IMG/VR virus record: IMGVR_UViG_3300037470_001281 | Location: 1 to 41,087 of that record | Origin: a virus | Lineage: Duplodnaviria; Caudoviricetes | Strand: one strand, 5' to 3' | DNA length: 41,087 nucleotides | Shown here: piece by piece, positions 3,072 through 30,617 of the stretch | Layout of the letters: each line of letters begins with the position of its first letter | Numbering within the stretch: the first letter of the stretch is position 1 | Translations under genes and position numbers: made by a program | Notes under the pieces: model-generated | What the model was told of the DNA's origin: nothing | Database searches by the model: none | Seen by the model: the letters and a program-made list of their open reading frames with translations, nothing else

Positions 3072-3612
3072 ACAGGCCGCGCCGGTGCCGACAGCCCGGT
3101 TTACGGTGGATGAGGCGCAGGCGGCGGCCGACGAATGGGGCGCGAATTGTGGCCCCGGCGCCCTGGCCGGCGTCCTGGGGCTGACGCTCTCGGAGGTGCG
3201 GTCCCGCCTGGTCGGCTTCGAGGAGAAGGGGCACACCAACCCCACGATGATATACTCGGCGCTGGAACTGCTCGGCGTGAAGTACCGCCGGGTGCGCAAG
3301 CCCACTGAGTGGCCGCGCTTCGGCCTGGTCAGGATTCAATGGGGCGGCCCGTGGATGGCCCCGAAGGTCCCCGGCTTCGTTCGGTACATGCACACCCACT
3401 GGGTCGGCGCGGCGACGGCCGACTCGGGCGCCGTCCAAGTGTTCGACATCAACTGCATTTGCTCGGGTGGCTGGGTCCCCCTCGATGAGTGGAGCTGGGA
3501 GGTCGTGCCTAGGCTCCTGAAGGAAATCGAGTCCAAGGGCGACGGCACGTGGAGCATCGCCGGCGTCGTGGAAGTCACACCCGCCACCGGCGGGAAGGGG
3601 GAGGGGACATGA
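3058..3612 (+). CDS. Papain-fold C39-like cysteine peptidase domain protein
   Basis: NCGPGAL (Cys), THWV (His), VFD (Asp) in C39 order; GTG start with GGAGG. Confidence 0.6.
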   Translation: METVEQAAPVPTARFTVDEAQAAADEWGANCGPGALAGVLGLTLSEVRSRLVGFEEKGHTNPTMIYSALELLGVKYRRVRKPTEWPRFGLVRIQWGGPWMAPKVPGFVRYMHTHWVGAATADSGAVQVFDINCICSGGWVPLDEWSWEVVPRLLKEIESKGDGTWSIAGVVEVTPATGGKGEGT

Positions 3613-20629: not shown

Positions 20630-21396
20630 GCCGGCTCCCGACCAGGGCGGATACCCGGATCGAGCTGATCTCGCCGGCGCTCTTCAGCTGGGATGCGCGC
20701 GACCGCTCGCTCCGCGCCCGCACCGGCCACCTGCTCACCCACACCCGGGCGAGCAACAGCCTGATCACCACTACCGGTGGGGAGACGGTGGAGGTGGTGC
20801 ACTCCGCACCGGCCTGGTCGCTCTCTGGCGGCGCGATCGGGCTCCGCGTGGATCCGGCGGAGGGCAGCGACCTCCTCCCCGGCAGTGACCCCGTCGCCGA
20901 TCGGCTCGGCGACAGCCTCACCGGCACGATCTCCCCGCGCCTGCCCGTGGACGGCTCCGGCCTGGTCCGCTTCCACCGCGCCGGGTGGATGGACGAAGCC
21001 GGCACCCTCGACGCGGCGGTGCTGCTCGGCGTGGGTGGCACCAACCCCCGCCTTGTGCTCCATGCCCTCGCCGCCTCCCGGACGCTGCGGATCTCGCTGT
21101 ACGACAGCCTCGCCAACGAGGTCGGGGCCCAGATCGCCCTCCCCGCCGGCAGCGTCCTCGCCGTCGCGTTCCAGTGGCAGGCGCTCGACTCGGCGGGTGC
21201 GGTGCGCCTCGATGTCGGCGCCGGATACGGGAGCTGGTCCAGTGCCCTCGGCGGGGCGATCGCCGGCCTCGGTGACGGCGTCCTGAGCCTGGGCGATGCC
21301 GCCGATACCGCCGGCAGCCAGGCCGCGACCGCCCTCTGCCAGGTGCACCTCGCCGGCGGCCACCTCACCCGCGACCAACTCCTGGAGGCCGTGTGA
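20626..21396 (+). CDS. Minor tail protein, possibly LamG/ConA-like
   Basis: LTHTRAS N-terminal motif, beta-rich, C-terminal LTRDQL. Confidence 0.5.
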   Translation: MSRLPTRADTRIELISPALFSWDARDRSLRARTGHLLTHTRASNSLITTTGGETVEVVHSAPAWSLSGGAIGLRVDPAEGSDLLPGSDPVADRLGDSLTGTISPRLPVDGSGLVRFHRAGWMDEAGTLDAAVLLGVGGTNPRLVLHALAASRTLRISLYDSLANEVGAQIALPAGSVLAVAFQWQALDSAGAVRLDVGAGYGSWSSALGGAIAGLGDGVLSLGDAADTAGSQAATALCQVHLAGGHLTRDQLLEAV

Positions 21397-21755
21397 GCCC
21401 CTCCTCCCCGATCGCCCGGGTGGAGTGGCCCGGGTGGCAGGGCGCCCTGCGGCGGGCCCTCTGGCCGCACCTCGGCAAACTGGTGGTCGCCTGCGCCGCC
21501 ATGATCGTGGTATCGAGCTGGTCGTTCATGCGCACGATGATCGCCATGCCGCGCCACCAGGTGGAGCTCCGCGCCGACGTGGATTCGGTCCGGGCCCTGG
21601 CCACGCGGACCGCAATGGAAGTGACCGAGATCAGCGAGGCGTTCTGGATCCGGGTCGCGATGGACTGCCTGGCCCTCGATCAGTCGGATTCGGTGTTCGT
21701 GATGACGCGGCTGCCGTGCGGGAAAGCCTACTTCCGCAGCGGGATCCGGCGATGA
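21393..21755 (+). CDS. Single-TM protein (holin/antiholin candidate)
   Basis: One TM helix, coiled-coil-like segment, Cys pair in the C-terminal part; upstream of endolysin. Confidence 0.55.
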   Translation: MSPSSPIARVEWPGWQGALRRALWPHLGKLVVACAAMIVVSSWSFMRTMIAMPRHQVELRADVDSVRALATRTAMEVTEISEAFWIRVAMDCLALDQSDSVFVMTRLPCGKAYFRSGIRR

Positions 21756-21874
21756 GAGCCAAGCGGACGACCCGCCAGGCCCGGACCAACCCGGCGCTGC
21801 GCGAGAAGCGGGCCCAGGACACCAAGCGCGCCACGCGGAACGCCCGCCGGCGCGACCAGCGGAGGAAGCCATGA
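21752..21874 (+). CDS. Highly basic 40-aa peptide (MRAKRTTRQARTNPALREKRAQDTKRATRNARRRDQRRKP)
   Basis: ATGA overlaps at both ends; 13 Arg + 4 Lys versus 3 acidic residues. Confidence 0.6.
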   Translation: MRAKRTTRQARTNPALREKRAQDTKRATRNARRRDQRRKP

Positions 21875-22359
21875 TCGCCCTCACCCCCCAGACGGCTGTG
21901 CTCAACCTGGCCAACGCCCTGCTGTTCATGCGCGAGATCAACGGCTCCAACCGCTCGGAGCTCATTGACGAGATGATCCGCCGCACGGGCCTCGACCCCA
22001 CCCAGCGCCTGCCCTGGTGCGCGGCGGCGGTAGCGTGGATCGGCTACGGCGCCCTGCGGAAGCAGTGGCCGCTCAAGAAGGTGGCCGGCTGCGTCTCGCT
22101 CTTCGATGACGCGCAGGCGAAGGGCCTGGTGCGCACCACCCCGGCGCCGGGCGCGGTGTTCCTCCAGTGGCGCCGCGACAAGGGGCGCTTCGCGCACACC
22201 GGGTTCGTCGTGGGCGAGGCGGCCGGGGTCGGCAGCTGGGAGACGCTGGAGGGGAACACCAACGAAGCGGGCCACCCGGACGGCGTGGGCGCCTTCGCGC
22301 GCACCCGACGGTTCGGACCCCAGGACCGCTTCATCCACTGGTGGGAAGAATCCTCATGA
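21871..22359 (+). CDS. Endolysin, CHAP domain
   Basis: PWCAAAV (Cys), HTGFV (His), LEGNT motifs. Confidence 0.9.
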   Translation: MIALTPQTAVLNLANALLFMREINGSNRSELIDEMIRRTGLDPTQRLPWCAAAVAWIGYGALRKQWPLKKVAGCVSLFDDAQAKGLVRTTPAPGAVFLQWRRDKGRFAHTGFVVGEAAGVGSWETLEGNTNEAGHPDGVGAFARTRRFGPQDRFIHWWEESS

Positions 22360-22931
22360 GCAACCTCCACTGGTGGCATCCATCGGCACGGCTCTGGAAT
22401 ACCCTCTCCAATCTGGCCTACCCCCTGGTGGGGTGGCTGGCCCAGCAGCATGTCGGGTCGATGGAGGCGGTGGTGGTGGCGCTCGCCCTGACGTATCTGG
22501 GTGTCACGTCCGGCGGCTATCACTGGTTCGGGGGCAAGCGCTGGCAGGCGGCGGATTGGTCTGGGATGTACGCGATCTTCGGGGCCCTGGCGCCGTGGCT
22601 CCTGATCGCCCCGTTCGCGGATGAGCTCTCGATTCCCCTCTGGGTCTTCATGGCGCTCTGTAGCGTGGCCGCAGCGACCCTGTTGTCTTGGCGCTTCCGA
22701 CAGGTCGGGACGAACGGGCTTCTGGCGGTCTTGCTCGTGCTGGCACTGGTGCCCGCGTTCGGGAACGGGGACCGGCTGATGGTCGGCGTAGCCCTCGGGT
22801 GGTTCCTGGTGGGGATGGGCGTCTGGCAGCTCGACCAGCGGACCGCGCTGCTGGGGTACTGGGGCCACGCCGCGTGGCACGGCGCGACGGCGTTGGCGTT
22901 CGGGGCGCTCTTTCTCGCGGGGGTTGCATGA
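22356..22931 (+). CDS. CREST-superfamily (alkaline ceramidase-like) multi-TM Zn hydrolase, 191 aa
   Basis: WNTLSNL, SGGYH (SxxxH), AADW (Asp), W..D, HAAWH (HxxxH); about 7 hydrophobic segments. Confidence 0.8.
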   Translation: MSNLHWWHPSARLWNTLSNLAYPLVGWLAQQHVGSMEAVVVALALTYLGVTSGGYHWFGGKRWQAADWSGMYAIFGALAPWLLIAPFADELSIPLWVFMALCSVAAATLLSWRFRQVGTNGLLAVLLVLALVPAFGNGDRLMVGVALGWFLVGMGVWQLDQRTALLGYWGHAAWHGATALAFGALFLAGVA

Positions 22932-22984
22932 TCGGCGCCTTCGTCCGGTTCAATGCGGGCTCAAACCTTTCTCCGAGGTGTCTC

Positions 22985-23410
22985 ATGAGGCTGTCCATTC
23001 CGAATCCGCGGCGGGTCATCGCGGCGCTGACGCTCCTGCTCCCGCTCGTCGCGCTCACGGCGGCCGTGCTGGTGGCGCAGGACACGGTGACGGTCGTGGC
23101 CGAGCAGAGTGTGCCCGGGAGCCTGGCCGAGCTGCTGACCGCCTACCAGCTCGGGATCGCGACGCTGCTCGGCTCGGCGATCGTCTACCTCCTGGCCAAG
23201 CACACGGCGTTTTCGACCAAGAGTGACCGGGTCAAGCGAGGCTCCTACCTGGCTGCGGCACTCCTGGTGACCGTCGCCCTGAAGCTGGCTGGCGGAACGC
23301 TCTCGCCCGACCTCGAGAGCTTCGTCGTGACCGGACTCCAGACCCTCGTGTCCACCGTCACCGGTGCCGGCGTGTACGCGATGGGCAAGAGCCAGCCCGG
23401 TAACGCCTGA
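22985..23410 (+). CDS. Holin-like membrane protein
   Basis: GAGGTG RBS; 3-4 hydrophobic helices, GAGVYAMGK C-terminus; in lysis block. Confidence 0.6.
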   Translation: MRLSIPNPRRVIAALTLLLPLVALTAAVLVAQDTVTVVAEQSVPGSLAELLTAYQLGIATLLGSAIVYLLAKHTAFSTKSDRVKRGSYLAAALLVTVALKLAGGTLSPDLESFVVTGLQTLVSTVTGAGVYAMGKSQPGNA

Positions 23411-23435
23411 TGCTCCCCCGCCCATGGAGGTCCTG

Positions 23436-24872
23436 ATGTTGCTCACGACCGAGCGACGGGTGCGCCCCTCGCTCATCGGCCTGCTCCTGGTCACCATCCT
23501 CGCGCTGCTGAGCAGCTGCCTGCCCACCACCCTGGCGGCGCAGCTGCCGATCTGCGCGTCCGGCACCAGCCCGTTTACGCTGACGGGCGGCGTGGGGTAC
23601 GAGGTTCGCCGGGGCGACGACTCGACCGTGGTGAGCAGCCACACCACCATCCACGTCGCCCTCGGCGTCGCGCTGGTCTGGCAGACGGCGTACCCCGGCA
23701 TTGCGTTCACCGTCTGGCCGCCCGTGACGGCGCACTGGCGTATCACCTGCGTGGTGGGCGCGCCCATCGTCCTGCCGCCGCTCCCGCCACCGCCACCACC
23801 GCCGCCCGTGGACACGACGCCTCCGCCGCCGCCCTTCACGCTGAGCCGGGTGATCACGGAGGCGGATGTGCGGGAGGTCGCGGGCGGGATCCTGTCGGTG
23901 ATGATCCAGGTGCATCGGCTCTCGGGTGAGGTGGTGGCGGGGATCCCGACCACCTGGACCGTCGAGGTGGGCGGCGGCATGGGCGAGCAGGCGGAGCGGT
24001 CGCTGACGCTGATGACCGACGGGGCCGGTCGCGCGCAGACGAGCTGGTCGCTGACCGCGGACGTGGAGAACCGCCTGCGCATCACCGCCGACAGCGCACT
24101 CGACCGCCTGGTGCGCTGGCCAGGGACCCCACCTCCGCCACCGCCCGCTACCCCGGTCTACGAGATCCTGTTGTTTACTGACCCGCCGCCGAGTGGCGAT
24201 GTGCAAACCATCACGATCGCGGTGCAGCGGATCAGTGATGGCCGGCGGGAACTGGATCGCGCGGTACGCTGGCTCAGTGAGTCGGGCAGTGGCATTGGCT
24301 CCCCGCCCCTGCCGGATGTGACGCTGACCACCGGGACGGGTGGGCACATCGTCGCCCCCTGGACCACCGTGCCGGGCGTGGTGAATCGGGTGCGCGCGCG
24401 GACGGACAGCGCGGCCGAGCTGGTGGTGACTCGGGACCGTCGCGTGACGGAGACACCGCCTCCCGCGACATCGATCGCGGCGGTGGATGGCCTGGTGGTG
24501 GCGGTGCGCCTGGTGGCGGATTCGGTCGAGGCCGACATCCGATGGACACCCGCCACGAGCTGGCAGGCGGGCGACAGCGTGCGGATCAGCGGGACTCTTG
24601 GGGCCATTGTGGGCACGCTGGTAGACACCGCCCTGGCACCCGATGCGGAATCGATCCTGATCAGGCGGCCGTTCGATTCCGCGGGTGGACAGTTCATCTG
24701 TGCCCGCTTTATCCAGAGCGTGGCGGCCGTCCGAACCGCGGGGGCGGGGCGGGCGGTCTACGGCGAGGTGGCCGGGTGGCAGGGGTCGCTCCGTGTGCGT
24801 GGTCCTCAGTGGGAGGAGGGCGTGCCGAGTTGCGTCGGCTATGACCTGCCCTCCCCCGGGACCAACGAGTGA
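23436..24872 (+). CDS. Exported/lipoprotein with poly-Pro linkers and two Ig-like (Big_1-like) repeats
   Basis: Signal peptide with LSSC lipobox (or AAQ signal peptidase I site); repeats TLMTDGAGRAQTSWSL..NRLRITADSA and TLTTGTGGHIVAPWTT..NRVRARTDSA. Confidence 0.65.
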   Translation: MLLTTERRVRPSLIGLLLVTILALLSSCLPTTLAAQLPICASGTSPFTLTGGVGYEVRRGDDSTVVSSHTTIHVALGVALVWQTAYPGIAFTVWPPVTAHWRITCVVGAPIVLPPLPPPPPPPPVDTTPPPPPFTLSRVITEADVREVAGGILSVMIQVHRLSGEVVAGIPTTWTVEVGGGMGEQAERSLTLMTDGAGRAQTSWSLTADVENRLRITADSALDRLVRWPGTPPPPPPATPVYEILLFTDPPPSGDVQTITIAVQRISDGRRELDRAVRWLSESGSGIGSPPLPDVTLTTGTGGHIVAPWTTVPGVVNRVRARTDSAAELVVTRDRRVTETPPPATSIAAVDGLVVAVRLVADSVEADIRWTPATSWQAGDSVRISGTLGAIVGTLVDTALAPDAESILIRRPFDSAGGQFICARFIQSVAAVRTAGAGRAVYGEVAGWQGSLRVRGPQWEEGVPSCVGYDLPSPGTNE

Positions 24873-24970
24873 GGGCCCCGCGACGGTGGGTGGTGCCGCT
24901 CCTGGCGCTCCTGATCTTCCTGGCGGGACTGCTGACGGCGGTGTTCGGCCACGCGGGGCACCGGCATTGA
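24869..24970 (+). CDS. Single-TM micro-protein (33 aa, MRAPRRWVVPLLALLIFLAGLLTAVFGHAGHRH)
   Basis: Hand translation; GTGA/TTGA overlaps at both ends. Confidence 0.6.
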   Translation: MRAPRRWVVPLLALLIFLAGLLTAVFGHAGHRH

Positions 24971-25500
24971 CGGACGCCGAGGTCGCGGCGCTCTACCGCG
25001 AGTTGGGGTCCCGGCCCGCCGTGGCCCGGGCGCTGGGTCGGCCGGAAAGCTGGGTCCGGCGCGCCCTGGGCCGGGCAGGGCAGCAACCGTTTCCCAAGTG
25101 TGACGCGCGGGCCCGGCGATACGACGATCTGAACTGGGCGGCGCTGTACCGGGAACACGGTAGCTACCGCCAGGTGGCCCGGGCCGTTCGGTGTGATCCC
25201 GCCACGGCCCTGAACCGACTGATTGCGGCGGGGGTGCACTTGGGCGGCCGAATCCCGCCCCGGTTCGATCCGGCGGCAGCGTCCCGGGTGGCCCGCTTTG
25301 CACGGAGCTACGGGATCAAGGACACCGCACAGACGATGGGGTGCAGTGTCCACGCGGTGCGCACGGCGATACGGCGGGTTGACGGTGCGGTCGGGGAACC
25401 GAGCCAACGGTTACCCCGTCCCGCGGGTGTGATGTCGCGAAAGACCGTGCTGCGGCGTCTCCGCCGGGCGGAACGGGACGCGCGATGGGCGGAGGAATGA
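24967..25500 (+). CDS. Tandem-HTH DNA-binding protein
   Basis: Repeats AALYRELGSRPAVARALG / AALYREHGSYRQVARAVR / ARSYGIKDTAQTMGCS; TTG start coupled to upstream stop. Confidence 0.65.
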   Translation: MTDAEVAALYRELGSRPAVARALGRPESWVRRALGRAGQQPFPKCDARARRYDDLNWAALYREHGSYRQVARAVRCDPATALNRLIAAGVHLGGRIPPRFDPAAASRVARFARSYGIKDTAQTMGCSVHAVRTAIRRVDGAVGEPSQRLPRPAGVMSRKTVLRRLRRAERDARWAEE

Positions 25501-25586
25501 CCGACACGGACCGGGCGGTGGCGCGGAGCCTCCGCCGGCTGCGGCAGCGTGGGATCTACACTGGACCGAAGGAGTCGACGAGATGA
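25497..25586 (+). CDS. Possible 29-aa micro-ORF (MTDTDRAVARSLRRLRQRGIYTGPKESTR)
   Basis: ATGA overlaps at both ends, GGAGG upstream. Confidence 0.4.
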   Translation: MTDTDRAVARSLRRLRQRGIYTGPKESTR

Positions 25587-26977
25587 CCGCACCCCTCCTG
25601 GCCAACCGCGTCGCGGAGATCTGGACCGGCACCGGCACCGGCACCATCGCGCCCGGGGGCGCCCTGACGGGCGGCTACCGCGCCTGGGAGGACGCCTTCG
25701 CCGTGGGGGATGAGGTCCGCTACGTCATCGCGCACCGCAGCGCCCTCGAGTACGAGATCGGGATCGGCACGATCGGCGCCGGCAGCACGCTCAGCCGCGA
25801 CACCATCGTCGAGAGCAGCAACGCCGACGCGCTGGTGTCCTTCTCCGCCGGCGAGAAGGACGTCTTCTGTGCGCTCGACGCGGTGACACTGATGGGGATC
25901 GGGATCCAGCGGCTGGATGTCCAGGTCGTCACCACCCTGCTGGCGATCGGCGACGTCTACGAGGCCGCGGTGACCGACTTCGGCCGCTTCTTCCGGCTGC
26001 TCAAGTTCACCGCCCAGGCCGACCGCGGAGCATGGATCCGCCTCTACGGCTCCGCGGCGGACCGGACGGCGGATGTGCGGACCGACCCCACGGTGGCCGT
26101 GACGACCGAGGCGGTGCTCGCCGAGGCGGTGCTCTATGACACCGACCTGGTGGCCGAGGCGCCCGCCGGCGTGCACGGCATCGGGGTCTTCCTCGACAAC
26201 ACCGAGTCGCCCCAGCTGGGCCGGCTCTTCGTGCGGATCACCCGGCTGGATGAGACGGGGGGCACGACGCCGCCCACCACCCTCTTCGGGGATGACCTGG
26301 CCAACCCGAGCCCCGGCAGCGGGGATGTGGATCTGGACTCCCGCAGTCCTTCCGATCCCGATGATCCGGCGTTCGACTGGGAGTACGAGGGAGTCAGTGA
26401 CGACTGGCAGGTCTGGTCCTTCGGTGGGGCGTTCAAGAACGGGTCCTCCTCTGTGGCCCGAACCGATATCGACATCCTGGGCGACGACTTTGAGCTCCGG
26501 TTCTCGTTGTTCATCCTGGCGGTCCCCACCTCATGCACAGCCGAGGTGCTCTTCAACGTCCCCGACACCGCCCTCGGCTCCTGGAATGGGCGGGACTATC
26601 TCGTGGTGCGGGCCAGCGCCCCCGATCTGGGTGTCGCCCTCCTCTACATCGATGGCAGCGGCGTGACAAACACCCTGGCCACCGACACCCTCACGGGCTG
26701 GGGTCCGTCGGCGGTCCGCTACTTCCGGCTCCGGCGTCAGGGTGGGACGGTGACCGTCTGGGTGGCCACCCAGTCCGACCGCAGCGACGAGACTGTCCTG
26801 TTCGACGCGATCACGGTGCCGGACCTCACCGCCCAGGCGCGCATCGCCCTGGACACGACCGGGTTCATGGGCAGCGGTGGCATGGTGCCGTCCGATGTGT
26901 TCTGGCAAGACCTCGCCGACCCCGCCGCCGTCGACACCCTGACTCTCGCCGTCCTCGGCGATCGCCTCGCGGCGTAA
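25583..26977 (+). CDS. Tail fibre / receptor-binding protein
   Basis: N-terminal phage tail domain pattern (NRVAE..TGTGTI...EIGIGT..TLSRDT..SSN..LVSFSAGEKDVF); C-terminal beta-sandwich-like region. Confidence 0.75.
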   Translation: MTAPLLANRVAEIWTGTGTGTIAPGGALTGGYRAWEDAFAVGDEVRYVIAHRSALEYEIGIGTIGAGSTLSRDTIVESSNADALVSFSAGEKDVFCALDAVTLMGIGIQRLDVQVVTTLLAIGDVYEAAVTDFGRFFRLLKFTAQADRGAWIRLYGSAADRTADVRTDPTVAVTTEAVLAEAVLYDTDLVAEAPAGVHGIGVFLDNTESPQLGRLFVRITRLDETGGTTPPTTLFGDDLANPSPGSGDVDLDSRSPSDPDDPAFDWEYEGVSDDWQVWSFGGAFKNGSSSVARTDIDILGDDFELRFSLFILAVPTSCTAEVLFNVPDTALGSWNGRDYLVVRASAPDLGVALLYIDGSGVTNTLATDTLTGWGPSAVRYFRLRRQGGTVTVWVATQSDRSDETVLFDAITVPDLTAQARIALDTTGFMGSGGMVPSDVFWQDLADPAAVDTLTLAVLGDRLAA

Positions 26978-26986
26978 GGAGCGATC

Positions 26987-27745
26987 ATGAGCGCCGGATG
27001 GAAGTGGCCGCTGGCGGCGGAGGGCGGGGTCGCTGTCCCGGACCCGTCTGCCCTGGCCGACAACAAGTGGCTGAAGACGACGGGCGGGGTGTGGGTGTCC
27101 ACGGACGCGCCGAGCGGGGGGGGGGACCTCGGCCTTCTGGCCGCCGTTGCGCCCCCGTCCTCGCCAGACGCCGAGGACGAGGAGTTCGCGTCCACCGATG
27201 GCCTGACGTGGGTCAACCAGGGCACCTCGACCGTGACCTACGCCGAGAGCTGCATGGTGCTCTCCATTGGCAGCGCCGGTGGGGGGACCGGGCGGTTCAA
27301 GTCGCTCTCGGGGTCCGACTGGACCTATCGGGCGCATCTGTGGCAGCTGGCCCCGAACCTCGACATCACGCGCTTCATGAACCTGGCGCTCCGTGAGTCG
27401 GCGACCGGAAAGCTCACCACGATTGGCCTAGCCCGTCGGGGGGGACCGCTCACGTCGGTCTCTGTGGCGCACTGGACGGACATTACCACCTTCTCCAGCT
27501 ACGCCGCGAACATCGACCTGGTGGAGACGTACGCCCATAATCGCCCGATCTTTGTGGAGGTGCGCAAGAGTGGCTCCACGCTGAGCTTCCACTACCGCTG
27601 GGGCTGGGGCGGTCCGTTTGTGCAGGTGGCCAGCCATGCCCTCACCACGCATTTCACGACCGCGCCTGATCAGATCGGGTTTAGCATGTTTCAGGTCACC
27701 GTGGCGGCGGTCGGGGTGGCGGACTTTCTCCGCAAGATCGCCTAA
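26987..27745 (+). CDS. Minor tail / receptor-binding protein with ConA-like domain
   Basis: DEEF...LTWVN, FVEVRKSGSTLSFHY, PDQIG, ADFLR pattern. Confidence 0.6.
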   Translation: MSAGWKWPLAAEGGVAVPDPSALADNKWLKTTGGVWVSTDAPSGGGDLGLLAAVAPPSSPDAEDEEFASTDGLTWVNQGTSTVTYAESCMVLSIGSAGGGTGRFKSLSGSDWTYRAHLWQLAPNLDITRFMNLALRESATGKLTTIGLARRGGPLTSVSVAHWTDITTFSSYAANIDLVETYAHNRPIFVEVRKSGSTLSFHYRWGWGGPFVQVASHALTTHFTTAPDQIGFSMFQVTVAAVGVADFLRKIA

Positions 27746-27748
27746 CCC

Positions 27749-29761
27749 ATGCCCGCCCTCGGCCCGGTCGCGGGTCTCCCGATCGCCTCGCTCTGGGGCG
27801 CCGCTTCCGCCCCGGTTATTCCGAGCGTCGGCCCCGAGAGCTACGAGCCCGCCTCTCCCGTCCCGCGCGGCTACCCGCACGTGAGCGTCTGGAGCGATCT
27901 CGCCTGCCGAGACGGCGTGCCGATCCGCCGGCTGCCGGCGCTGCTCGACTGGTCCGAGCGCCACCGCCTCGAGGGGTTCCTGGTCACCCACCAGTGGAAC
28001 GGCACGATCCCCACCCAGTGGGAAGGCACCACCGAGCTCCTCGAGGGCCGGGTCCTCCGGGTGGTGCGCCGCCCCGGGGACATCCGCGAGTACATCCTGA
28101 CCACCCTCGACGATGGGATCAACACCGGCGGGATCACCACGCTCATGGCGGAGGGCGTCGAGTCGCTGCTCGCCACCATGGGGCGGGTGGCCGAGTCGCT
28201 GAGCGGGTCCGCGCCCTCGGATGTGTTCACTCGGATCCTCGACGCCGCGGAGTCCTGGCTCCAGCTCGGCGTCATTCAGCCCACCGATCCGCTCGATGTC
28301 GCGGACGCGCCGGCAGGTGGCCAGTCGGTCGGGGCCGCGATCCGCCACACCTGCGCGGCCATCCAGCAGCGCACCAGCACCACCTACGAGGTCGCCCTCG
28401 TCCGCGGCAGTGAGACCACCTACTTCCTCCAGGTGGCCATCTACCGCGAGTTTGCCCCGGTGGTGGATCTCCCGACCGGGGTCGCCACGCTCAGCCTCAC
28501 GCGCCGGCGCACCCTCACCACCCGGATGACCCGCGCCTTCGACCCCTCCGCCGGCATGGCGAACAGCTTCTGGACGGTGCTCGATGTGGACGGCAGTGTG
28601 GTGGACCTGGGCGGGCTCGATGGCGGCATCGGCCTGGCCATCGAGGGCGGGCAGTGGGTCGGCGCCTTCATCCAGGACACCGATGGCGACGCGCATGAGA
28701 TCCTCGACGTCGAGGTCCTCACCCCCCAGGTCACGCGGCTCACCCTCGATGGCGTCGGCAGCCTCGCCGAAGGGGACCTGGTCCGCCTGGTGGCGGATGC
28801 CGACGGCGGGGCCATCACCGAGGCCCTGCTCCCCTCGGCGGAAGCCGCCCTGCCCCGACCGATCCTCCGGCCGGTCTCGAGCGGGGCGAGCCCTGTCACC
28901 AACTTCGTCACCAACCCCGCCTTCCGCGACTGGGTCGGCAACGTCCCGACAGGGTGGACCGTGGTCGCCGGCGGCATGGTGCGCTCGACCACCCCCGGCA
29001 CCTTCCTGACCGGCGGTGGATCCGTCCTGATGACGGAGGACGTCACCAGCACCCTGCGGTGGGAGGGGAGCGCGTATTTCCCCGAGGGTGGCCCAGCGGT
29101 CAAGGTGCAGTACTGGGCTCGGGTGCGGGTCGACCGCTGGGTGAGCGCCCTGGTCGGTGACGACGCCTGGGAGGACGTGCGGCTCAACATGGGGGTCATC
29201 GTCATCTTCACCCCCCCCGGCACCTACCAGGTCGTGCAGGGCCCCGAGAATCAGCCTTTCGGCGAGTGGTTCGAGCTGCGCCACGAGCAGATCCTCCCTG
29301 CGCCGGGCCCGGGGCAGTCCGGGATCCGGCGGTTCGGCATCAACTTCACGAACTACGCCGAGACGGTGCAGCCGGAGCCGTTCAGCCCGCTGCCCTGGCG
29401 GGCCCGGCTGTTCGTCGACGCGGCGATGGTCACGGTGAGCCCGACGCTGCCGGGGTTCTTCATCGGCTCCGGCCCCGCCCGCGCCATCCAGCAGGCCAAC
29501 CTCGACTTCCTCGCCTTCGGCGGCCCCCAGCAGTCGCTCACCGTGGATCCGATCGACCTGGCCCGCCTCGACCCCGAAGGCGCCGGCTACTACCGCACCC
29601 TCCGCCTCGGTGCCCGCACCCGGATCCTCGGCCGCGGGCTCGGCGTCGACCAGGAGCTCCGCGTCCTCGAGCACCTGGAGCCGGGTCGCGGCGCCCGGGC
29701 GCAGCTCACCCTGGACACCCGCCCGGCGCTCCTCTCCCGCACCCTGGCCGCGCGGCTCTGA
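27749..29761 (+). CDS. Tail tip/hub (Tal-like) protein with carbohydrate-binding-like insert
   Basis: 670 aa; NFVTNPAF..W..VPTGW; C-terminal IDLARLD..LRLGARTRI...LRVLE. Confidence 0.6.
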   Translation: MPALGPVAGLPIASLWGAASAPVIPSVGPESYEPASPVPRGYPHVSVWSDLACRDGVPIRRLPALLDWSERHRLEGFLVTHQWNGTIPTQWEGTTELLEGRVLRVVRRPGDIREYILTTLDDGINTGGITTLMAEGVESLLATMGRVAESLSGSAPSDVFTRILDAAESWLQLGVIQPTDPLDVADAPAGGQSVGAAIRHTCAAIQQRTSTTYEVALVRGSETTYFLQVAIYREFAPVVDLPTGVATLSLTRRRTLTTRMTRAFDPSAGMANSFWTVLDVDGSVVDLGGLDGGIGLAIEGGQWVGAFIQDTDGDAHEILDVEVLTPQVTRLTLDGVGSLAEGDLVRLVADADGGAITEALLPSAEAALPRPILRPVSSGASPVTNFVTNPAFRDWVGNVPTGWTVVAGGMVRSTTPGTFLTGGGSVLMTEDVTSTLRWEGSAYFPEGGPAVKVQYWARVRVDRWVSALVGDDAWEDVRLNMGVIVIFTPPGTYQVVQGPENQPFGEWFELRHEQILPAPGPGQSGIRRFGINFTNYAETVQPEPFSPLPWRARLFVDAAMVTVSPTLPGFFIGSGPARAIQQANLDFLAFGGPQQSLTVDPIDLARLDPEGAGYYRTLRLGARTRILGRGLGVDQELRVLEHLEPGRGARAQLTLDTRPALLSRTLAARL

Positions 29762-29982
29762 TGTGCGTCTGGTACGCCCTGAACCCCAAGGGCCAGAAGC
29801 TGGCCGAATGTGAGGCGCCCGGCGTGCGCGAGGCGACGATCGTGTTCCTCACCCAGGGCGTGCCCGACGTGGCGAAGGTGCAGTCGCGGATCGCCTGGGA
29901 GATGGACCGCGAAGAGGAGGCGATCCACCGCCGCAACCGGCGGAACAAGTTTCCCGAAGAGGCAGAGGAGAGTGACACGTGA
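29761..29982 (+). CDS. Hypothetical protein (73 aa)
   Basis: TGATG/GTGA coupling. Confidence 0.6.
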   Translation: MCVWYALNPKGQKLAECEAPGVREATIVFLTQGVPDVAKVQSRIAWEMDREEEAIHRRNRRNKFPEEAEESDT

Positions 29983-30617
29983 AACCATTCGCCGTCGGCG
30001 CGATCGCGCTCGTGATCTGGACCGCGCTGGCCTTCGTCGCGGGCCGGTATACCGTCCCCGACCGCACCCAGGAGGTGAAGGACTGGCGGGACAGCGCCGC
30101 GGTGGCCCTCGAGCGGTCCGAGGCCGCCGACAGCGGCCGGGTGGCCGCGGAGGCCCGCACCGGTGCCCTCATCGAGCGGGTCCTGGTGGCGGAGTCGCGG
30201 TTCACCCAGGCCACCGCCCGATCCGCCGCCGCCAGTGCGGAAGTCGCGGCGCTCACCCAGGAGCTCGTCGAGGCCGCGACCCTGGCCGATACCGCCCGGG
30301 TGCGGGGTGTCATCATCGAGAGGCAGCAGACGCAGATCCTCGACCTCAACGCGAGCCTGGGTGATGCCCAGGAGATCGTGCGGGATCTCCGGATGGACCT
30401 GCAGATGGTCCAGGAGGAGCGGGCCGCCGACCAGGCGGAGCTCCGCGAGCTGAGGGCCACGATCGCCCAGGGGCTCGAGGCGACGAAACCGAGCCGGGGG
30501 CGATCGCTCGGCGCGCTGGACTGCGTTGTCGGGCCCGGCGTGCATCGAGACGGGCTCGACTGGGCCTCTGCCAGCTGTGGCCTGTCCGTGCGGTCGATCC
30601 TCGGCCGGCGTGGGTAG
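29979..30617 (+). CDS. Spanin-like protein (N-terminal TM, long coiled coil)
   Basis: TM at about aa 4-22, long Ala/Glu helical region; last gene of late operon. Confidence 0.6.
   Translation: MKPFAVGAIALVIWTALAFVAGRYTVPDRTQEVKDWRDSAAVALERSEAADSGRVAAEARTGALIERVLVAESRFTQATARSAAASAEVAALTQELVEAATLADTARVRGVIIERQQTQILDLNASLGDAQEIVRDLRMDLQMVQEERAADQAELRELRATIAQGLEATKPSRGRSLGALDCVVGPGVHRDGLDWASASCGLSVRSILGRRG

Follow-up and report, generated by a model that had tools for sequence, protein, structure and literature searches.

A mostly phage-borne family of ceramidase-branch CREST proteins, encoded in one prophage between an endolysin gene and a holin-like gene

The CREST gene and its neighbours in the prophage

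The window, by which we mean the whole 41,087-nucleotide stretch of viral DNA analysed here (IMG/VR record IMGVR_UViG_3300037470_001281), is a siphovirus-type prophage with a GC content of about 70%, in which terminase, portal, protease, capsid, tape measure, ParB and integrase have clear Pfam/PHROG matches. Its CREST protein (22356–22931) is recorded on a 717-kb contig too, which fits an integrated prophage. A search of 21300–23600 found no promoter or terminator consensus and is uninformative at 70% GC, and an ARAGORN tRNA at 3127–3217, with undefined anticodon and inside a predicted coding region, is probably spurious. The features that concern us are the following:

21393–21755, plus strand: single-TM gene, 120 aa, upstream of the endolysin gene; by its position a candidate second holin or antiholin
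21752–21874, plus strand: Arg/Lys-rich ORF, 40 aa, between the single-TM gene and the endolysin gene
21871–22359, plus strand: CHAP-domain endolysin, 162 aa (Pfam CHAP, PHROG 9589); its stop overlaps the CREST start
22356–22931, plus strand: predicted CREST/alkaline-ceramidase-like seven-helix intramembrane hydrolase, 191 aa (translation, family alignment, AlphaFold model, ACER3 matches)
22985–23410, plus strand: holin-like membrane protein, 141 aa (size, membrane segments, place behind the endolysin in relatives)
29979–30617, plus strand: spanin-like protein with an N-terminal TM and a long helical region (architecture only), 6.5 kb behind the cassette

Translation of 22356–22931 is stop-free over 191 residues, and its start codon shares the sequence ATGA (22356–22359) with the TGA stop of the 162-aa ORF upstream, just as the original prediction had described. 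The motifs on which that prediction based an alkaline-ceramidase-like hydrolase were all found: WNTLSNL at residue 14, SGGYH at 52, AADW at 65 (containing D67), W157..D160 and HAAWH at 171. GC3 of the gene is 0.875, against 0.87–0.93 in its neighbours. The upstream ORF matched Pfam CHAP with E=6.4e-5, under the gathering score, and the endolysin family PHROG 9589 with E=8.8e-12. The downstream gene that had been described as holin-like is indeed there, starting 53 bp past the CREST stop (an alternative in-frame ATG at 22928 would overlap that stop), but neither Pfam nor PHROGs yielded a holin match for it. Its nearest Pfam-bearing ESM Atlas cluster is Phage_holin_5_2, a lead only at a score of 0.76, and we call it holin-like only for its size and membrane segments and because in relatives it follows the endolysin. 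The spanin-like protein had no match in PHROG/Pfam; it is separated from the holin-like gene by an HTH gene together with several large genes that look tail-like (23424–30617).

Relatives of the window were detected in two Gemmatimonadota genomes, G022 and G370, both of which were matched by the holin-like gene (2 of the 401 genomes in the set), while the spanin-like gene matched G022 alone among 301 genomes (46%; 45–46% identity to the G022 prophage protein). Over several genes, the window and the related prophages are 35–50% identical, and from these prophages Gemmatimonadota is the likely host. In both relatives the holin-like and spanin-like genes are split in a similar way, and small N-terminally hydrophobic genes occupy the place that matches the single-TM gene of the window (position only). 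The order in G370 is a small TM gene, a CHAP endolysin gene (49% identical to the window's), 21 bp and a holin-like gene (44%). G022 carries a similar 40-aa basic ORF directly before a probable endolysin of another type, which has no Pfam match, and then the holin-like gene (45%). The G022 and G370 prophage regions contain no CREST family member, so that the gene is absent from both related cassettes found. With endolysin and holin-like genes directly adjacent in both relatives, the CREST gene of the window is either an optional insert in the cassette or was lost from both. Across the Gemmatimonadota set, the CREST family occurs in 9 of 401 genomes.

Family assignment, fold and predicted zinc site

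Taken singly, the CREST protein reached 14.8 bits against Pfam Ceramidase (PF05875; E=0.019), below the gathering score of 32.5, and it has no family in PHROGs or NCBIfam. Profiles were more informative. A three-sequence profile gave no PDB match and collected 356 representatives at 50% clustering (E<=0.001) among 1.84 billion sequences; an 83-sequence family profile (A3) aligned end to end with ACER3 over profile positions 12–197 with E=4.7e-14, and matched SIDT2 with E=0.004. Among 75 relatives scanned against Pfam, which are part of the profile matches listed, Ceramidase was the nearest family for 63 (E<=0.01) and HlyIII the best for one, and 17 exceeded the Ceramidase gathering score. The nearest ESM Atlas cluster (score 0.95) has 58 members, 94% of them viral, and Ceramidase clusters come next.

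The AlphaFold model (pLDDT 95.3, pTM 0.91) consists of seven long helices, corresponding to the seven transmembrane segments that make up the CREST core, with 187 residues aligned to ACER3. ACER3 was the top match both in Foldseek (E=3.7e-4, TM 0.70), where AdipoR structures rank far below it, and in VIA-align (Z 17.6, rmsd 3.5), followed there by myomaker (Z 15.0), SID-1 proteins (13.9) and GPCRs (about 11). The profile E-value of 4.7e-14, together with ACER3 as the top fold match, places the motif match beyond chance. CREST proteins are described as having SxxxH where TM2 ends, Asp where TM3 begins and HxxxH where TM7 begins (PMC3146951); correspondingly, S52 and H56 fall in helix 36–58, D67 in helix 61–90, and H171 and H175 in helix 170–190. 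The zinc site of ACER3 is reported as S77, H81, D92, H217 and H221, with W220 contacting ceramide (PMC6303388), and the 11-residue spacing from His to Asp is the same in the two proteins. The alignment equivalence gives a predicted zinc site of S52, H56, D67, H171 and H175, plus W174. No substitution occurs at N15, S52, H56, D67, W174 or H175 in any of the 83 aligned relatives, and 82 of them retain H171.

The ACER calcium site, formed by an N-terminal D19-W-C-E-x-N24 and E33 and needed for ACER3 activity according to the same paper (PMC6303388), has no counterpart here: the region before N15 has a Trp but lacks both Cys and acidic residues, and E or Q stands at the E33 position in 2 of 20 scored phage copies versus 24 of 26 chromosomal copies. 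Six Lys/Arg residues lie on the N-terminal side versus one on the other, and this charge bias, with the ACER3 precedent, suggests that the N-terminus is inside and the zinc site at the cytoplasmic leaflet.

Sequence, fold and conserved residues together make the protein a member of the CREST superfamily in its ceramidase branch, as the original prediction had it; judged from its sequence, with the calcium site absent, it falls outside the ACER family proper. The gene is a real one and represents an undescribed ceramidase-branch CREST family that is mostly phage-borne and has its catalytic set intact. In the literature covered, which included few subscription papers, no phage alkaline ceramidase was found.

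We considered whether the gene might be a neutral or non-catalytic passenger that brings the phage no benefit. Such a passenger could account for its variable position (see below), its absence from the related prophages and the empty result of a tblastn search with five family members against 50,697 GenBank phage records. However, the full predicted catalytic set is intact in all 24 phage loci described below, across very divergent copies, and this conservation together with the 356 representatives argues for long purifying selection, making a passenger very improbable.

Genomic contexts across the family

Pattern and profile scans returned 83 loci; an HMM confirmed a family member in 72, and the other 11 were dropped as chance matches. 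The 72 loci and the window form 49 clusters at 90% identity, 24 of which we judged to be phage-derived by IMG/VR origin or neighbouring genes. Genes were called with our own script, and 89 of 110 neighbours plus two other proteins were scanned against PHROGs. Many of the 24 loci lie on short contigs, and the sample is without the contexts of the closest relatives, P0002–P0008; a search of viral contigs with the single CREST protein, the window endolysin and a short-N-terminus pattern found nothing.

The 24 phage loci divide into 4 lysis, 15 replication/middle, 3 structural and 2 unclear contexts. Replication/middle neighbours include RecT, RecE, polymerase, primase, RusA, RuvC and nucleotide enzymes, with a few loci lacking an annotated neighbour. 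One locus (L061) was left as unclear after its upstream membrane gene, tried as a homologue of the window holin-like gene, gave no BLASTP alignment. Two loci, L018 and L050, have neighbours with the PHROG label "endolysin; inhibits RNA polymerase"; as these proteins match dATP/dGTP pyrophosphohydrolase, we did not score them as lysis. The four lysis loci, whose holin and spanin labels rest on architecture, are arranged as follows:

Window: CHAP endolysin, CREST, holin-like
L001: holin-like, Amidase_2 endolysin, CREST, spanin-like
L035: CHAP endolysin (47% identical to the window's), CREST, spanin-like
L047: holin-like 77-aa two-helix gene, CREST, spanin-like

All four copies share a 4-base start/stop overlap with the upstream gene. 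Of the 20 loci outside lysis cassettes, 3 have no upstream neighbour, and in 8 of the other 17 the copy overlaps its upstream gene too; we therefore rejected translational coupling as a specific sign of a lysis role. A single origin of the lysis linkage was rejected as well: grouping the lysis-linked copies as one clade gave AU p=0.0003 and the tree needed four changes, in a test on quick trees of 32 rows with the long-branch L008 and L019 left out. If the chance of landing beside a lysis gene is taken as 4–10%, 4 of 24 lysis-adjacent loci correspond to P=0.014–0.21, and 3 of 23, without the window, to P=0.06–0.41.

These contexts bear on the proposal of a true lysis component built into the cassette, that is, a ceramidase recruited in the manner of LysB to weaken the envelope or set the timing of lysis with holin, endolysin and spanin. 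The position in the window stands, and four separate cassette placements with different partners, each with its 4-base upstream overlap, could reflect selection for a lysis role and so count against an accessory gene. On the other hand, 20 of the 24 phage loci are outside lysis cassettes, which is not the regular position across a family that a LysB-like component would occupy; adjacency without the window is not above the assumed 4–10%; the two related cassettes do without the gene; and a separate spanin-like gene is present. The expected association of homologues with endolysin or holin genes was thus borne out in a minority of loci of separate origins, and we regard a true lysis component as unlikely.

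The remaining 25 clusters are mostly chromosomal, come from Gemmatimonadota and a few other phyla, and in many cases have an extra N-terminal membrane segment. They include a chromosomal subgroup of 230–255 aa with the extra N-terminal TM and the E33 equivalent retained, which, according to the tree used, is nested in the phage diversity or adjoins it:

Chromosomal subgroup members: L032, L037, L044–L046, L051, L060, L062, L064, L066, L071–L075, L078, L083

One of these, L073, sits in a prophage-like region. Other settings were also seen: a family member within a phage glycosyltransferase/methyltransferase cluster in a structural region (L054:3916–9177), a lone phage-type copy on a Gemmatimonadota chromosome beside toxin-antitoxin-like genes (L093:9022–9642), and a 434-aa protein (P0125) in which the CREST domain (251–431) follows a fused multi-TM region at the N-terminus that weakly matches Phage_holin_3_6 (E=0.002).

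Substrate, proposed role and known systems

The original prediction had suggested looking in the host for serine palmitoyltransferase (SPT). An SPT-like gene (E<=1e-140) was present in 85 of 151 sampled genomes of the probable host phylum, Gemmatimonadota, and, among 14 control genomes, only in Bacteroides. Serine palmitoyltransferase was the best family for the two SPT-like proteins scanned (523–527 bits, more than 120 above BioF/Kbl), but the Gemmatimonadota proteins, at 485–561 bits, score under the 640-bit cut-off of NF047600. In all four loci inspected (G001, G022, G281 and G317) a GNAT gene and an NAD-dependent reductase gene come after the SPT-like gene, and the two longer stretches continue with a PAP2-type gene. 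Clusters of spt-like, GNAT, NAD-dependent reductase and PAP2 genes lie at L102:7291–11475, L103:7137–11294, L104:3–2694 and L096:1471–4162. Genes of the Spt–bCerS–CerR pathway are reported to be often clustered (PMC11334938), and by gene order and families the putative Gemmatimonadota cluster matches this pathway. No paper on serine palmitoyltransferase or ceramide in Gemmatimonadota was found in our literature search. The gene data suggest that many Gemmatimonadota make sphingolipids, and an amide-lipid (ceramide-type) substrate is plausible because the probable host phylum carries ceramide-synthesis-like genes.

The protein could instead be an active CREST hydrolase with a non-ceramide target, either another amide lipid (an ornithine lipid, a glycine lipid or a sulfonolipid) or an ester lipid, and alter membrane potential, fluidity or the display of receptors in a TrhA-like way, for instance for superinfection exclusion or evasion of membrane-based defence. 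CREST proteins are described as having varied substrates or being non-enzymes (PMC3146951), which counts against a ceramidase, and bacterial PAQR homologues affect membrane energetics (PMC9017321). Loss of the calcium site, with E33 not E/Q in 18 of 20 phage copies, hints at altered regulation or substrate; most copies are among early/middle genes and chromosomal relatives occur in several phyla. Nevertheless, the predominance of Ceramidase over HlyIII as nearest Pfam family, the invariant tryptophan equivalent to the ceramide-contacting W220 of ACER3 and the ceramide-synthesis-like genes of the probable host phylum all point the other way, and we consider a non-ceramide target improbable.

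What is known from Caulobacter helps to place a ceramide-cleaving enzyme. There, Spt and bCerS act at the cytoplasmic side and the outer membrane is enriched in ceramide (PMC11087976); phage adsorption rises when ceramide is lost, with burst size unchanged, and ceramides contribute to phage resistance (PMC6445935). The contribution to resistance would favour a lysis component, but the effect on adsorption rather than burst size, and an active site predicted to face the cytoplasm while ceramide is enriched in the outer membrane, speak against it. A cytoplasm-facing inner-membrane amidase would meet new ceramide and not the outer-membrane pool, which fits gradual remodelling of the envelope better than a sudden rupture of the outer membrane.

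The explanation that we favour, at slightly better than an even chance, is a predicted mobile accessory zinc amidase, likely acting on host ceramides as a late, optional helper in envelope remodelling and not as a core part of lysis. Its first step, established computationally, is a minimal seven-helix CREST protein with all the zinc-site residues of alkaline ceramidases. From charge bias and ACER3, the N-terminus would be inside and the zinc site at the cytoplasmic leaflet of the inner membrane, and the related prophages and the spt–GNAT–reductase cluster point to a Gemmatimonadota host making ceramides. The substrate would be newly made (oxo)ceramide, whose acylation in Caulobacter takes place on the cytoplasmic side; cleaving it would leave less ceramide to supply the outer membrane, and fatty acid and a long-chain base would be set free. 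The gene, likely inserted between the endolysin and holin-like genes, would be made late in infection, and its accessory status is apparent from the comparison with relatives.

A bolder version, repeated independent recruitment of an intramembrane ceramidase into lysis cassettes by phages of sphingolipid-making Gram-negatives, seems to us doubtful. If true, it would be a counterpart of LysB, with the outer membrane starved of ceramide and the inner membrane flooded with long-chain bases before holin triggering.

The 356 representatives from the profile search suggest that ceramidase-branch CREST proteins form a widespread phage family that is so far undescribed. The family also points to ceramide metabolism as a bacterial phage–host battleground; ceramides are already known to affect phage sensitivity. 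At 191 aa and without a calcium site, the protein lends itself as a minimal model of CREST catalysis, and it gives an easy way to learn what bacterial CREST proteins cleave. The case for a new lysis component is weak, and a virus-borne ceramidase as such is already known from giant viruses.

LysB has a soluble alpha/beta-hydrolase fold. In mycobacteriophages it is an esterase whose target is the mycolate outer layer (PMC5707550, PMC6116114), and it resembles the CREST protein in being a lipid-cleaving enzyme encoded in a lysis cassette, lipid cleavage by the latter being predicted. In contrast to LysB, the CREST protein is a predicted polytopic inner-membrane zinc enzyme and an irregular member of the cassette. 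The ceramidases of giant viruses (Marseillevirus, Pithovirus and Mimiviridae; BFVD), described previously (PMC5383658), are likewise virus-borne with a CREST fold and provide the top viral fold matches (TM 0.70–0.74), but they have eukaryotic hosts, are mostly longer, share 12–19% identity and are in no lysis cassette. TrhA/hemolysin III of the PAQR branch (PF03006) is also a small bacterial seven-TM protein of the CREST superfamily, whereas the family matches here favour Ceramidase over HlyIII. The bacterial CREST "hypothetical groups 1 and 2" of Pei et al. 2011 (PMC3146951) are similar in being bacterial, of the ceramidase branch and of unknown function there; that paper contains neither "phage" nor "virus", while the present family is phage-centred with a Gemmatimonadota chromosomal subgroup. 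The closest comparison is with ACER3 (PF05875; PDB 6g7o, 6yxh). The phage protein differs from it in being phage-borne, in its length (191 aa versus about 260 profile positions), its 20% identity, its Pfam score (14.8 versus 32.5 bits) and the missing D19/E22/N24/E33 calcium site, yet the two share the seven-TM fold (Z 17.6, TM 0.70), SxxxH, the Asp 11 residues later, HxxWH, NTxSN, the N-terminal Trp and the WxxD before TM7.
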